Position numbers: made by a program. From Calditrichaceae bacterium (GTDB lineage Bacteria > Calditrichota > Calditrichia > Calditrichales > JBFXGD01), in the NCBI GenBank assembly GCA_050178385.1, contig JBFXGD010000012.1:1-43218 (forward strand): a stretch of DNA of 43,218 nucleotides, written 5' to 3'. Positions within the stretch are counted from its first letter, which is position 1, and each line of letters begins with the position of its first letter. Positions 33,001 through 43,218 of the stretch are shown here, in pieces.

Positions 33001-36000
33001 GTCTCACCGTCAGCACTCCTTCCGAAAGCGCGGATCCATCATCGGGTATCGTCGAAATTGAGAAAGATATCTTCGGGAATCCCCCGGATATAGATAAAAA
33101 CAACACAGTGGAATTTCTTCTGGTGGATATCAAAGATGGTTGGGATGGCGAGGGCAGCTATATCGGTGGATTTTTTTATTCACTGGACCAATTGGTAAAT
33201 CAAACTGGTTCAAACAAAGCAGATATGCTATATATTGATACATATCCCGGTATTTTTTATGAAAATGAATACGGGTCATCTTATACTACCCAAAATGCGC
33301 TTGCCACAGTCGCCCATGAATTCCAGCATCTGATTCAATATAATTACGACAAAGATGAAGCAGATTTCATAAATGAAGGCCTGTCAGAGCTAGCCAGCTA
33401 TGTCACCGGGTACGGTTTAAGGAATCCAACTCCGTATTTGATGGATACAGGTGTTAGTCTGAACACCTGGGATAATACATCAAACGATGCCACTCTAAAA
33501 CATTACGCGAAGGTTGCTCTGTGGGATTATTTCCTGTATGAAAAGTATCAGAGCACCTTTATACGCAATCTGGCTCAGGATCCCGGTAACGGCATAACCG
33601 GAATTAGCAGTGCTTTATTAAAAAGCGGGATTTCAGAAAAATTTGATCAGGTACTGGAAGAATTTTTTTTGACACTTGTATCTAATAATCCCGATGTACT
33701 GCCACAGTATAGTTTTAATAAAACGGATCTGCAATACCTTCAGGCAAAGCCCAAAAAACGCGCGGACTACTATCCGGTTGGTTTTGAAATTGAGACAAAA
33801 CCTTATTCGCTGAATTTAGTGTCCTGGACAAACGGGGACACGCTCAAAGTGGATATGAACGGAGCGTTCTTCGGTGATATTTACCTGAATAAATCTGGTA
33901 TGAATCAGTTAACATTCCTGGAAAATGTTTCCGGGTTTCCATTGATAGATCCGGAATTCGGAACATCGCATCACACACAGACGCTGTCCTTTGTGAATAA
34001 TACCGAGAAAACCGCGCGGCTGACCCTGACAGGTGAAGCCCGGGAAAAATATTATATTTCAACCCTTGAATATGGAGGTGAGAAGCCGACTTTTAATATT
34101 TCATCCGAAAATAATATCAACGCGATTCATTTCGCCGCGCCTTATGACTCCACCCTGATAAAATCGATCAGATTTTATAACGGCGCGTCTGTTCCGGTGC
34201 GCCTGCATGTTTATCAACAGGCAATCCGGGCGGGGCAGACACCGCCATCCTATACTGTGACGGTCCCAAACACATATGCCTACGAATGGGTGACGATAGA
34301 TATAGAAGATTTACAGATTTACCGGAATCAGAATGAGTTTCTGGATGTGGGGATCGAATATTTTGATGACGGAAGCATGGGGTATGAAGCGGTAAGTAAT
34401 CGCGCCGGTTATTCATTTATCAAATTTCCCGATCAGCCGTTCCGGATTTTAAGTGATTTCAAAGTGGGTGATAATCTGACTCTTTCCGGGATATGGATGA
34501 TAGAAGTGGACGCGGCGGTTCCCGTCTATCATCGTCCGCAGGGGGATGAAGCAACTAAAATCACTTTTATAAGCGGTTATCCAAACCCATATAATCGGAC
34601 GGCGGCATCGGCAATTACTTTTGAATACGAATATGACGGTCGGGAGCCGGTTAAGTTTGATGTTTTTAATGTTCTGGGACAACGAATTTATTCATATACA
34701 GATGCAGCTCTGACCGGCAGGCTTGAATGGAATGGCACTGACCTGAACGGCGTGTTCGTAGCGTCCGGAACCTATCTAATACGTTTGACGGCGCCGGGAA
34801 ACGCGGTGTTTTCCAAACTGGTGATCATAAAATAAATGCGTCTGTTTGGTGGATGTACTATTTGAAAAAGAATTATGATGTATAGATTGGCTGTTGTATA
34901 TTAATACATGCGTTTTATATTGATAAAGTGAAGGCGAAATTACTCAAAAAGATTGCAAATACAATTTTTATACATGTTTAGGCATAAAAAAATAAATAAA
35001 TTTAAGTTTAGGGATTGCATTTTAATCAGGATATTGTAAATTTGTATGGTCTTTCAGCTAAATCCGGGGGAAAAGACAATGTAAGATGTATGGTCGAATG
35101 CTTATATTCAATGTGATACCGGATGAATTATGTTCTTTCAATCTCTACACTTGGATGCGCGCGAAAATTAACAGAAGCGAAACCTGATTCTGCAGCGGTA
35201 TTTTCTCACTCCAGTATTGTAACGAAAAGTTGGTCATAAAATATTGATGGTTCATTAAATTTAGTCTTAGAATTTTATGAGGAAACCATTTATGAAGAAT
35301 TTTTACGGTACGATTATTTCTAAAACCTGCCCAAATGCCCATAAATACAAAACACTTGACAATAAATTGGTTTTTTTTTAAAGTGATGATTATCACACAC
35401 ATGTTAAAAGCTTGAAAATTAAGATAAGTAGAATAAAACCAACAGGAGGTGAAATATGACATGATGTGTAACCGCATGCATTGACTATTAATTAGCGCAT
35501 TTAAGTCATTAATTTGTGGAGGTAGTAGGATGTTCAAAAAAATGCTTTTATTATTGATCGTCTTAGCTATGCCGATGTATATTTTCGCGCAATCGTCCGG
35601 AAAGATCATAGGTGTAGTTAAAGACAAAGATACGGGTGAGCCATTACCCGGGGTCAATGTTTTTCTACAAGATACTTACATCGGCTCAACAACAGATGTC
35701 GATGGCTATTTTGTACTCTTAAATGTACCGGTTGGTACCTTCAATCTGGAAGTTAGTTATGTAGGGTATCAGAGTGCGATCTTTGAGGATATTCGCGTTT
35801 CAGCAGGTGTGACGACGGAACAGAATGCTTCATTAGCTTCAACAACTCTTGAGTTGGGTGAAGCGGTAGTTGTTACAGCAGAGCGTCCCTTGGTAGAAAA
35901 GCATGTCACTCAGAGTATATCAAAGGTCACAGGCGAAGATCTTGCTTCGATACCCGTTCGTGGAACGCAGGATATTCTCGCCATTCAGGCGAGTGTGGTT

Positions 36001-42000: not shown

Positions 42001-43218
42001 GAAATTGGTAGTTATTCAGGGTGAACAGATCCTGAAGTATTATTAAAATCTATCAAAAAAAGCATGATAAGGAAATAATTTAGGAGTGAATAATGAAATA
42101 TAAGATGAAAATAAACGGGACCTTGGTTCTCGTGTTCTTTCTTCTCCTTGCTATGCTGCCCCTTTACGCAGGCTCTGATGCGCGAGTAGGTACAGCAGCA
42201 GGCGTCCAGGTCCTTGTACCGGTAGGTGCTCGTGATTTGGCCATGGGCGGTGCAAACATTGTCAACACACAGGGTGTTGATGCTATTTACTGGAATCCCG
42301 CCGGTTTGGCGACACTGGATGGAAAGGCACAAGGCGCGTTCTCGAACATGACTATATTCAGTGATATAGGTGTTAATTATCTTGCTCTCGGCGTGAATAT
42401 GGGCTCTTTGGGAAATCTGGGATTTGATATCAAAAGCTTTGATTTTGGTGATATCCCGGAGACAACGGTACTAGACATGGATGGGGCATCCGGGAAGACA
42501 TACTCCCCCACCTATTCGACCGTTGGCCTTACCTATGCCAATAAACTGACTGAAACAATCCGGGTGGGATTCACGGGTAAGATGATCTATGAATCAATTC
42601 CGCGTGCAGAAGCCACATCATTTGCCTTCGATATTGGTATTCAGTACATGAATCTTGCCGGATTAGATGGGGTTTCATTTGCTGTAGTCGCAAAGAATAT
42701 TGGCCAAAATATGAGTTATGAAGGTTCGGGCTTTTTGTATGCGGTACAGGATCCTGTAACAGACAGAACTGATTATGTTACCCGCGAGACTTCATCAGAT
42801 CAGTTGCCTGCCAGTTTGGAATTTGGTGTTGCATATACGTACAAACTTATGGAACGCAACACATTATTGATTTCCGGTGACTTTGCGAACAATAATATCG
42901 ATAACGATGAGTTAAAACTCGGTGTCGAATATAGTTATAATAACTTTGTCGCATTGCGTGGTGGATATATCAATAAAATTAATGTTGCTGCCGAAGATGA
43001 AGATTTTGATTTCAGCTTTGGTGCGGGTATTAATTACAAACTTGGCAATACAATGCTGTCTCTTGATTATGCCTTCCGTAATTCAGAGTATTTCGATGCC
43101 AATAACATGTTTACACTCAAAGTTGGTTTTTAATAACTAGCTTGTTGTTTGAAGTATCAAAAAAGGCCGGCGGATTTTTCCGTCGGCCTTTTGTTTTATA
43201 TAGACGAGAAAGGAAGTA

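Follow-up and report, generated by a model that had tools for sequence, protein, structure and literature searches.

Passages of PMC12365241 describe how PorU and PorZ of Porphyromonas gingivalis are anchored through the outer-membrane barrels PorV and PorQ, and excerpts from a review put forward the proposal that cognate PorV-like barrels shield C-terminal domains (CTDs) of T9SS cargos from cleavage (PMC10202324). According to PMC12618676, all type A CTDs use PorV, while in Flavobacterium johnsoniae type B CTDs work with PorP/SprF, the cargo gene adjoins that of a specialised barrel, and the type of CTD decides both barrel and destination. Here we describe a three-gene cassette in a Calditrichota MAG, located at positions 35530-43133 (+ strand) of the 43,218-nt stretch of DNA that was analysed (the window), in which genes for a TonB-dependent transporter, a giant T9SS cargo and a barrel all lie on one strand. 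Like PorQ-PorZ and PorV-PorU, the cassette appears to combine a PorV/PorQ-family barrel, proposed as a surface holder, with a large secreted protein bearing a PorZ-type CTD. Unlike these pairs, its cargo belongs to an unnamed family, its barrel falls under both equivalog cut-offs, its genes are adjacent and always joined to a TonB-dependent transporter, and many paralogous sets occur per genome. With the type B system it shares the neighbouring specialised barrel gene; however, the barrel family differs, the CTD is type A-like, and the F. johnsoniae system has no transporter. The cassette would contradict the rule, as stated in PMC12618676, that every type A CTD uses PorV. A literature search outside most subscription journals returned no description of the cassette, and the terms "T9SS" and "Por secretion" are absent from the Caldithrix abyssi genome paper.

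In the SusC/SusD (RagA/RagB) utilisomes of Bacteroidota, a transporter whose N-terminal domain is of the CarboxypepD_reg type has its gene beside that of a surface-exposed lipoprotein partner, which presumably captures the substrate. The cassette is similar in that the genes for transporter and surface partner adjoin and paralogous sets are multiplied per genome, but the partner here is a cargo of the T9SS with a private barrel, has no SusD-like family and is not a lipoprotein. We rejected the assignment of the locus as a SusC/RagA-SusD pair: the transporter scored 65.2 bits with the SusC/RagA model TIGR04056 (cut-off 368.25), through its N-terminal part only, and neither giant nor barrel contains a SusD family. 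A further comparison is IhtA/IhtB of P. gingivalis, in which IhtB is regarded as a T9SS cargo. Passages of PMC12094164 gave no confirmation of this last point; they describe, as in the cassette, a TonB-dependent receptor and an exposed outer-membrane-associated partner encoded in one operon, whereas IhtB is a small lipoprotein and chelatase homologue, and no private barrel appears in those passages.

The intergenic gaps within the cassette are 55 nt and 46 nt, and a terminator-like hairpin with a 14-pair stem (8 G-C pairs) and a T-rich tail lies 28 nt 3' of the barrel stop codon (Table 1). A promoter scan was uninformative (26 sites against 22.3 expected), and a search for a riboswitch or other RNA 5' of the transporter gene gave a chance-level match only (tpke11, 18 bits, E = 0.58).

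Table 1. Features of the cassette and the canonical PorV gene in the window.
Feature	Position	Strand	Size or basis
TonB-dependent transporter, Oar/SusC-like	35530..38484	+	984 aa; CarbopepD_reg_2 and Plug matches
Giant T9SS cargo	38540..42046	+	1168 aa; marginal Por_Secre_tail match
Giant, predicted N-terminal beta-supersandwich domain	38657..40033	+	residues 40-498; AF2 model, fold comparison
Giant, middle part, predicted FN3/Ig-like beta-sandwiches	40040..40849	+	residues 501-770; model and Foldseek
Giant, distal part, hypervariable	40850..41659	+	residues 771-1040; low identity, gapped columns
Giant, putative class-2 (PorZ-like) T9SS C-terminal domain	41660..42043	+	profile matches, alignment
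Private PorV/PorQ-family outer-membrane barrel	42093..43133	+	346 aa; NF033709 167.2 bits
Intrinsic-terminator-like hairpin, end of three-gene unit	43161..43192	+	stem and T-rich tail
Canonical PorV, outside the cassette	8721..9812	+	NF033710 273.1 bits, cut-off 250

The genome-wide survey's note had reported an expanded set of PorV-family barrels, and its NCBIfam scores of 89.6, 92.8 and 167 bits were reproduced. Eleven proteins exceed the PorV_fam cut-off, one stands at 89.6 bits, and a further barrel (on contig C94) is BamG-like; the MAG encodes 11-12 PorV/PorQ-family barrels alongside canonical PorV, PorQ, PorU and a PorZ-like protein. PorV (273.1 bits) and PorQ (228.9 bits) lie outside the cassette, and canonical PorV is a single-copy gene in 31/31 genomes of the order. 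PorU (817 bits) and SprA are present, and the PorZ-like protein (C8:37155-39545) scores 186 bits, under the NF052228 cut-off of 260. Since the full T9SS surface machinery is encoded elsewhere, the extra barrels are additions, not replacements. The GldM model TIGR03517 matched neither this genome nor the control genomes and is uninformative. Across Calditrichota, each genome has 8-29 PorV-family genes. The reported proximity of barrels to large proteins also held in our own ORF set: at 7 of the 13 barrels, an adjacent gene on the same strand encodes at least 680 aa, compared with 365 of 3345 ORFs (binomial p = 1.7e-4, with paralogous cassettes as non-independent counts). Four cassettes share the order transporter, giant, barrel, as had been described: C12, the window's contig (984/1168/346 aa), C72 (944/1300/344 aa), and two cut by contig ends, C232 (giant at least 1012 aa, barrel 335 aa) and C210 (at least 682 aa and 347 aa).

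The window's barrel matches the PorV_fam model NF033709 over profile positions 8-326 of 326 (cut-off 90), and its scores with PorV (NF033710, 66.9 bits, cut-off 250), PorQ (NF033711, 70.1 bits, cut-off 220) and PorV2 (83.3 bits) all fall far under the equivalog cut-offs. Because these were missed and true PorV and PorQ are encoded elsewhere, we rejected its assignment as PorV or PorQ proper; a PorP/SprF barrel was likewise rejected, TIGR03519 giving no match at E<=1. The barrel profile matches F. johnsoniae PorV (6h3i_F, E = 3e-11). In Foldseek, the AF2 model (pLDDT 75.3) was closest to PorV 8gl6_F (E = 9.9e-14, TM 0.70/0.66), followed by 6h3i_F (TM 0.67), whereas TodX, FadL and BamG fitted less well (TM 0.42-0.59). 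The barrel is predicted to adopt a FadL-like outer-membrane fold with PorV as its nearest solved relative. In a tree, barrels from the cassettes group separately from canonical PorV and PorQ, in clades of their own.

The tail of the giant scores marginally as a T9SS CTD (TIGR04183, 23.0 bits against a cut-off of 23; Pfam PF18962, 16.8 bits against 27), and in the alignment the usual beta-sandwich motifs are present, altered in ways specific to the class. Genome-wide, 54 CTD matches form two tail classes. Among the 54, the nine barrel-adjacent cargos take ranks 28, 42, 47, 48 and 50-54 by CTD score (Mann-Whitney p = 1.9e-5), which supports a distinct, divergent, PorZ-like tail (class 2) on these cargos. 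Class-2 CTDs carry a conserved C-terminal extension of 9-10 residues that ends in aromatic residues, and they have motifs in common with the genome's PorZ-like protein. Residues 1076-1150 of the window's giant are 98% identical in the nearest relative. The survey had placed the divergent CTD nearest those of PorZ/PorU, and we concur as to PorZ: giant paralogues match just the last ~95 positions of NF052228 (37.4 and 23.5 bits), the C72 giant having no match, and the best solved relative of the window's CTD is the PorZ tail 5m11_A (residues 687-757), a match that is not significant. PorZ itself scores between both classes (32 versus 42 bits). The giant is not PorZ, a candidate discarded after NF052228 gave no match at E<=1; the type B CTD model gave none at the same threshold.

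Gene order ties this tail class to the barrel across phyla. At Calditrichota loci with room for the neighbouring gene, the transporter was present in 10/10 and the barrel in 9/9. In another phylum, we sampled 20 genomes with 20 loci, of which 16 were complete and two were cut by contig ends; the remaining two giants have an ordinary CTD, with neither transporter nor barrel. We then analysed a further 80 loci from at least seven lineages (Calditrichota, Fidelibacterota, Latescibacterota, Gemmatimonadota, Bacteroidota, Ignavibacteria and Kryptoniota) with CTD2, CTD1, barrel and transporter HMMs built from this genome and its relatives, the class labels being a construct of the present analysis. 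Giants with a class-2 CTD had a barrel directly downstream in 57/59 cases and a transporter upstream in 50/51, whereas class-1 members of the same family had neither (0/4 and 0/4). These counts support the idea that tail class, and not protein body, predicts a private barrel. Nor is the transporter a chance neighbour, its linkage being as strict as that of the barrel. In relatives, as many as three additional giants of this tail type can come after a single barrel, and in one complete genome four giants share a barrel, so that giants and barrels do not pair strictly one-to-one. The survey's proposal of cognate cargo-barrel pairs therefore stands in part: tail class predicts the barrel and tail and barrel distances co-vary (see below), but the placement of each barrel beside a cargo of its own is too strict. 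PIG-L/DUF4350 and GWxTD genes, which lie 3' of the barrel in many loci of the other phylum, are non-adjacent in Calditrichota and were rejected as members of the unit.

The giant family occurs in 75/86 Calditrichota genomes, at 1-13 copies per genome. Pfam and NCBIfam identified no family in the window's giant apart from the marginal T9SS tail, a solved-structure sequence search with its profile found no match, and an ESM Atlas search returned unnamed clusters only. Its AF2 model is of moderate quality (mean pLDDT 64.4). The N-domain lacks a Pfam family; over ~250 residues its model resembles the N-terminal domains of GH94, GH116, GH15 and GH65 (VIA-align Z 15-17.5, rmsd 3.4-4.1), so that it is predicted to be a beta-supersandwich of the carbohydrate-binding type, a fold that alone reveals no function. 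A sequence search gave 5392 cluster representatives at E<=1e-3, with 45-51% identity across phyla. Partial Mantel tests on 41 complete loci, a method known to be liberal and here applied to loci that are kin, correlated the N-domain with the transporter given the barrel (r = 0.66, p = 0.0005) and the CTD with the barrel given the transporter (r = 0.29, p = 0.001). Given the transporter, neither N-domain and barrel (r = 0.14) nor CTD and N-domain (r = 0.10) were significantly correlated, the latter although they belong to one protein. These values support co-variation of N-domain with transporter and of tail with barrel, while linkage and mirror-tree correlations of this kind can stem from shared history and whole-cassette co-transfer. 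The C72 and C232 giants have a different body in which the N-domain is absent; accordingly, partnership of N-domain and transporter cannot apply to every cassette.

We think it somewhat more probable than not that the three genes form an outer-membrane operon that builds a surface nutrient-capture unit, in which the giant is held by a barrel and not by a lipid anchor. The variant PorZ-like CTD would escape ordinary cargo processing, and the private barrel encoded downstream would hold it, tethering the giant to the outer membrane as PorQ holds PorZ. The N-domain would work with, and probably dock on, the transporter encoded upstream, and the FN3-like stalk and hypervariable distal module would point outward and decide what is captured. 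A glycan is our best guess for the substrate and import for the direction of transport. There are no glycan-degrading genes beside the window's cassette, and its upstream neighbour encodes a secreted HExxH protease-like T9SS cargo, which would suit a peptide substrate equally well. Alternatively, the barrel could be a dedicated shuttle that takes the variant CTD from the SprA translocon during export only, after which the giant is cleaved and released or attached to LPS and the transporter imports liberated products. According to PMC12618676 and PMC5562754, PorV acts as the shuttle of type A cargo, and type B cargo has cognate shuttles of the PorP/SprF kind; one barrel gene for up to four giants would suit a recycling carrier, and PorU is present. 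We nevertheless consider this unlikely, since the CTD is more like the PorZ type, which is retained, than like most CTDs, which are cleaved, bears the conserved extra extension and is the best conserved of the four cassette parts (mean p-distance 0.486), seemingly more than a transient signal needs.

The stalk and distal module of the proposed capture unit differ in conservation. Residues 501-770 are modelled with pLDDT mostly of 65-90, and Foldseek reported tandem FN3 matches to the giant, without residue ranges; among 11 orthologues, mean pairwise identity is 0.48 in this middle part and 0.27 in the distal part, where 41% of columns are gapped and model confidence is low. Compared with the nearest relative, identity is 6-46% in the distal part and 93-97% in the flanking genes; another cassette shared by these two genomes shows a uniform identity of 96-97%. 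Such hypervariability between near-identical flanks, set against the uniform second cassette, could also reflect a barrel-anchored surface coat or adhesin that serves adhesion or evasion of phages and predators, with a regulatory or assembly-related rather than nutritional link to the transporter. The FN3-like stalk and the occurrence of giants in tandem arrays would fit this reading. However, the transporter is linked as strictly as the barrel (50/51) and shows the strongest co-variation with the N-domain, and variable exposed binding modules are also expected of substrate-capture proteins; we regard a coat or adhesin as improbable.

The window's transporter has a signal peptide, a CarboxypepD_reg-like N-terminal domain (residues 27-114; CarbopepD_reg_2, 69.1 bits), a plug (residues 124-219; 35.6 bits, cut-off 23.9) and a large barrel, an order of domains by which it is predicted to be a TonB-dependent transporter. 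The barrel model PF00593 gave no match at E<=1 for this protein and 87.4 bits for an orthologue from another phylum, and a solved-structure sequence search found no match. A VVVTA stretch before the plug resembles the SusC-type TonB box. Orthologues are 46-93% identical and lie immediately 5' of the giant in the ten Calditrichota loci. Oar of Myxococcus is an export or assembly channel for the protease PopC. That the transporter itself exports or assembles the giant independently of the T9SS, with the PorV-like barrel as helper, is suggested by its Oar-like architecture (CarboxypepD_reg domain plus plug) and strict linkage but is very improbable, as the giant's tail is recognisable, if marginally, as a T9SS CTD, SprA and attachment proteins are present in the genome, and family members with ordinary CTDs lack a transporter, indicating that the giant body needs no such channel.

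A broader form of the capture-unit reading is more tentative, and we would not bet on it: the cassette may correspond to a SusC/SusD utilisome that does without a lipoprotein, and may be widespread across the FCB superphylum and neighbouring lineages. The T9SS would deliver its capture protein, a private PorQ-like barrel would clamp that protein's C-terminus, the conserved supersandwich would dock on the transporter and an exchangeable distal module would set the substrate range. If true, pairing of a PorZ-like tail with a private PorV/PorQ paralogue would be a third T9SS sorting rule, beyond PorV with type A and PorP/SprF with type B, and would explain the 8-29 PorV-family genes per Calditrichota genome; type A-like CTDs would not all be served by PorV, and barrel paralogy would be how these phyla multiply surface uptake machines. 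It would also provide a route by which phyla without SusD-type lipoproteins put a capture protein beside a TonB-dependent transporter. Naming the N-domain family would annotate thousands of large proteins from sediment, sludge, landfill and marine bacteria, and class-2 versus class-1 tails on one protein family offer a clean natural contrast for what decides anchoring.

Four short contigs from one metatranscriptome library map to the transporter and giant genes at >=99% identity; they hint at expression weakly at best, since such libraries may contain DNA and contigs give neither strand nor level. In read run X1, where no variant contigs were seen over the giant's body (missing cover that carries no weight), a deeper variant, ~7% different, spans positions 35008-35744 in the upstream region as well as the CTD and the start of the barrel gene.

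Three genes lie on the forward strand in the final 7.7 kb of the window, coding for a TonB-dependent transporter, a giant putative type IX secretion system (T9SS) cargo, and a PorV/PorQ-family outer-membrane barrel. The genes are spaced by 55 nt and then 46 nt, and 28 nt 3' of the barrel gene comes a hairpin that combines a 14-pair stem with a T tract. Four short contigs of one metatranscriptome library make up the RNA evidence for the cassette, a weak hint of expression at most. Against Pfam PF18962 the giant reached 16.8 bits, under the cut-off. The barrel scored far under the cut-offs of the PorV, PorQ and PorV2 equivalogs. 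Among solved structures its profile matched F. johnsoniae PorV (6h3i_F, E = 3e-11), and its predicted model (pLDDT 75.3) most resembled the PorV of the substrate-bound translocon (8gl6_F, TM 0.70), with FadL, TodX and BamG less close.

Coordinates and profile matches of the features discussed (C-numbers, contigs of this genome; L-numbers, compared loci)
Feature	Location	Strand	Match
PorV	window 8721-9812	+	273.1 bits, cut-off 250
PorV, 981-aa and 1047-aa genes	window 8721-16041	+	
HExxH protein, 741 aa	window 32610-34835		MXAN_6640-like
TonB-dependent transporter, 984 aa	window 35530-38484	+	CarbopepD_reg_2 69.1 bits, Plug 35.6 bits
Giant, 1168 aa	window 38540-42046	+	sole family match T9SS sorting tail TIGR04183, 23.0 bits, exactly the cut-off
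Perfect sigma-70 consensus	window 40154-40183		TTGACA, 18 nt, TATAAT
PorV/PorQ-family barrel, 346 aa	window 42093-43133	+	NF033709 167.2 bits, cut-off 90
PorU	C1		817 bits
PorQ	C2		228.9 bits, cut-off 220
SprA	C6		
PorZ-like protein, full-length	C8		186 bits, under cut-off 260
4300-aa cargo with PorU-like tail, then 644-aa PorV-family barrel fused to C-terminal TPR repeat	C47:7092-21934 (L040, L046)		
PorU-like 1664-aa protein and PorV2-like barrel	C49:714-6715 (L042)		
Solitary PorV2-like barrel	C65:1008-1997 (L041)		191 bits, cut-off 325
395-aa cargo beside barrel	C128		
486-aa cargo, then tandem PorV-family barrels of 313 and 332 aa	C149:707-4050 (L039)		
Metalloprotease, apparently split over two contig ends	C222:1-1361 and C24:1-1280		MXAN_6640 family, 181.8 bits
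N-domain protein, 723 aa	C293:72-2243 (L036)		

Cassettes of this order had been reported at four places by the genome-wide survey's note, and we saw all four, in the window and on contigs C72, C232 and C210, the last two being interrupted by contig ends. NF033709 found 11 barrels above its cut-off in the genome, together with a BamG-like protein and a barrel that reached 89.6 bits; every NCBIfam score that the note had quoted for barrels and tails was obtained again by profile search. Its claim that barrels lie beside large genes also held: for 7 of 13, an adjacent gene on the same strand encodes 680 aa or more, compared with 365 of 3345 in our own ORF set (p = 1.7e-4, paralogous cassettes not being independent counts). 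The genome has the standard set of T9SS surface proteins as well as the cassette barrels. On C49, the 1664-aa protein scored 328.6 bits with NF033707 (cut-off 420) and 259.7 with the PorU2 N-terminal model (cut-off 450), and its gene overlaps by 4 nt that of a barrel that scored best with the 'PorV2' model (103 bits); this pair and the C65 barrel may form a second sortase-type system. The 486-aa cargo on C149 is a relative of F510_1955-like glycosylhydrolases with a PorU/PorZ-like tail. Barrel expansion is phylum-wide in Calditrichota, with 8-29 PorV-family matches per genome in 56 genomes at least 90% complete, and every one of 31 genomes of the order has a single copy of canonical PorV. In the window, two genes come after PorV on the same strand, one for a 981-aa 'T9SS-dependent M6-like inactivated metalloprotease' (NF052323, 610.9 bits, cut-off 600), whose tail also matches the PorZ tail, and one for a 1047-aa protein with Peptidase_MA and a PD40/TolB-propeller; these two may be a conserved PorV-associated pair in Calditrichota.

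We next consider the secretion tails of the cargos. Among 54 TIGR04183 matches in the genome, the nine barrel-adjacent cargos ranked 28, 42, 47, 48 and 50-54 by score (Mann-Whitney p = 1.9e-5). Most tails align on the pattern 'QNYPNPFNP ... KKMxLxK'. Different motifs, 'F..(N/H)LP', 'W(D/N)L.N' and a final 'GK(I/L)..I', are common to the PorZ-like protein, the C128 cargo, all four giants and the C88 and C24/C222 proteins, and the tails of the window/C210 type have a conserved extra 9-10 residues ending in Y/F-Y. With HMMs that we built from these same data for ordinary (class-1) and divergent (class-2) tails, the giants of the window, C210, C232 and C72 and the C128 cargo scored higher as class 2, and PorZ scored between the two. 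The motifs shared with the genome's PorZ-like protein and this HMM preference support the earlier proposal that the giants end in divergent, PorZ-like tails. Against solved structures the best match of the giant-tail profile was the P. gingivalis PorZ tail (5m11_A, residues 687-757), which at E = 0.45 is not significant. The C24/C222 metalloprotease, with its class-2-like tail, has a 346-aa TPR protein 3' of it in place of a barrel.

The cassette order is conserved. In 11 Calditrichota loci, the transporter lies directly 5' of the giant in 10/10 with room for it and the barrel directly 3' in 9/9. Of 86 Calditrichota genomes, 75 encode giants of this family, in 1-13 copies that are often tandem, and many members have only the first ~520 residues in common. 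No Pfam model was found to cover residues 40-498 (the N-domain), for which a library of 1.84 billion proteins gave 5392 cluster representatives at E<=1e-3. A second phylum, the one to which a Fluviicola MAG belongs, was sampled at 151 genomes, and 57 had the domain; in one locus from each of 20 of these 57 the order transporter, class-2-tail giant, barrel was complete in 16; two of the others were interrupted inside the giant, and two held ordinary-tail giants without either partner. Many of these loci (L078-L090, L092) have, 3' of the barrel, a 760-860-aa PIG-L deacetylase-like and DUF4350 protein and a ~455-aa GWxTD-domain protein, and often serC- and serA-like genes upstream; none of these was adjacent to the cassette in the Calditrichota loci.

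A pattern search with the N-domain alignment gave at least 523 relatives, the best 80 of which, all from MAGs, were titled Calditrichota, Fidelibacterota/Neomarinimicrobiota, Latescibacterota, Gemmatimonadota, Bacteroidota, Ignavibacteria, Kryptoniota and others. Sixty-six giants among these 80 had a complete 3' end, 62 with a class-2 and 4 with a class-1 tail. After correction of ORF-overlap artefacts, class-2 giants with room had a barrel directly downstream in 57/59 cases and a transporter directly upstream in 50/51; class-1 giants had neither (0/4 and 0/4). On the counts before this correction, Fisher's test had p = 1.2e-4, the loci being kin. These counts argue that both partners are predicted by the class of the tail rather than by the body of the protein. 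N-domain proteins with a class-1 tail and neither transporter nor barrel are those on C293 of this genome (42% identical to giant residues 11-636) and at L077, L081, L153, L159, L166 and L168. That class-1 giants lack a transporter speaks against export of the giant through the transporter.

For 41 loci with all four parts complete, mean p-distance was lowest for the tail (0.486), followed by the N-domain (0.528), barrel (0.574) and transporter (0.589). Partial Mantel tests linked tail to barrel given transporter (r = 0.29, p = 0.001) and N-domain to transporter given barrel (r = 0.66, p = 0.0005). N-domain and barrel (r = 0.14, p = 0.07) were not significantly linked, nor were tail and N-domain (r = 0.10, p = 0.13), although these lie in one polypeptide. 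This suggests two contact modules, tail/barrel and N-domain/transporter, the test being liberal and the loci sharing ancestry.

An AF2 model of the giant (14 sequences, mean pLDDT 64.4) folds the N-domain as a beta-supersandwich. It superposed on the non-catalytic N-terminal domains of GH94 phosphorylases, GH116, GH15 glucodextranase and GH65 with VIA-align Z of 15-17.5 (~225-260 residues, rmsd 3.4-4.1). Foldseek matches, given without model ranges, also include tandem FN3 domains and PorZ; by the model's strand pattern, FN3-like sandwiches would lie at about residues 510-770. Model confidence is low at ~780-1040. Across 11 Calditrichota orthologues, mean pairwise identity was 0.62 in the N-domain, 0.48 in the middle, 0.27 at residues 771-1040 (41% gapped columns) and 0.63 in the tail. 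Compared with the nearest relative, the transporter is 92.6% and the barrel 96.5% identical, but the giant just 61.6%: 74-96% over the first ~450 residues, 46-62% at about 450-750, 6-46% at about 750-1050 and 98% in the tail. Since the C72-type cassette is 96-97% identical throughout in the same two genomes, this mosaic divergence is specific to the window's giant. The sigma-70 consensus inside the giant gene, near residue 540, sits where the more variable half begins; the promoter scan overall was not above chance.

The C72-type giant has a different body without the N-domain. When this genome's paralogues and the cassette orthologues were placed in one tree, barrels of the two cassette types (window/C210 and C72/C232) formed two fully supported clades apart from canonical PorV and PorQ, with deeper branches not resolved. 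The C72-type order is maintained in two Calditrichota relatives, and a Rhodothermales MAG has giant and barrel on an interrupted contig. In a complete 4.98-Mb genome from the same taxonomic order, the locus runs cargo, transporter, giant, barrel and three further giants, with one tail type on all four giants; two other relatives are similar. One barrel may thus serve several alternative giants. The idea that each barrel has its own cargo therefore keeps the side-by-side placement of barrel and giant but not an exclusive pairing.

Our best reading is that the cassette encodes a surface capture unit, for which we infer binding, retention of the tail, surface location, substrate and transcription. 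The T9SS would export the giant, and the private barrel would grip its PorZ-like tail, much as PorQ holds PorZ and PorV holds PorU (PMC12365241). The conserved N-domain would be the transporter's working partner, and the variable distal module would point outward. Alternatively, the private barrel could be a transient shuttle, or the giant a variable adhesin or coat. A review suggests that cognate PorV-like barrels shield such tails from cleavage (PMC10202324). For type B tails, cognate pairs of cargo and PorP/SprF barrel are established (PMC12618676), and that paper states that all type A tails use PorV. Our literature search returned no account of type A-like cargo that goes with both a PorV/PorQ paralogue and a TonB-dependent transporter, and the Caldithrix abyssi genome paper contains no T9SS term. 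For the substrate of the proposed capture unit, the N-domain fold alone leads us to guess at a glycan; peptides may also serve, as the neighbour on the upstream side is a secreted cargo that resembles an HExxH protease. This neighbour ends in a class-1 T9SS tail and has a counterpart at the same position in the nearest relative, 86.8% identical.
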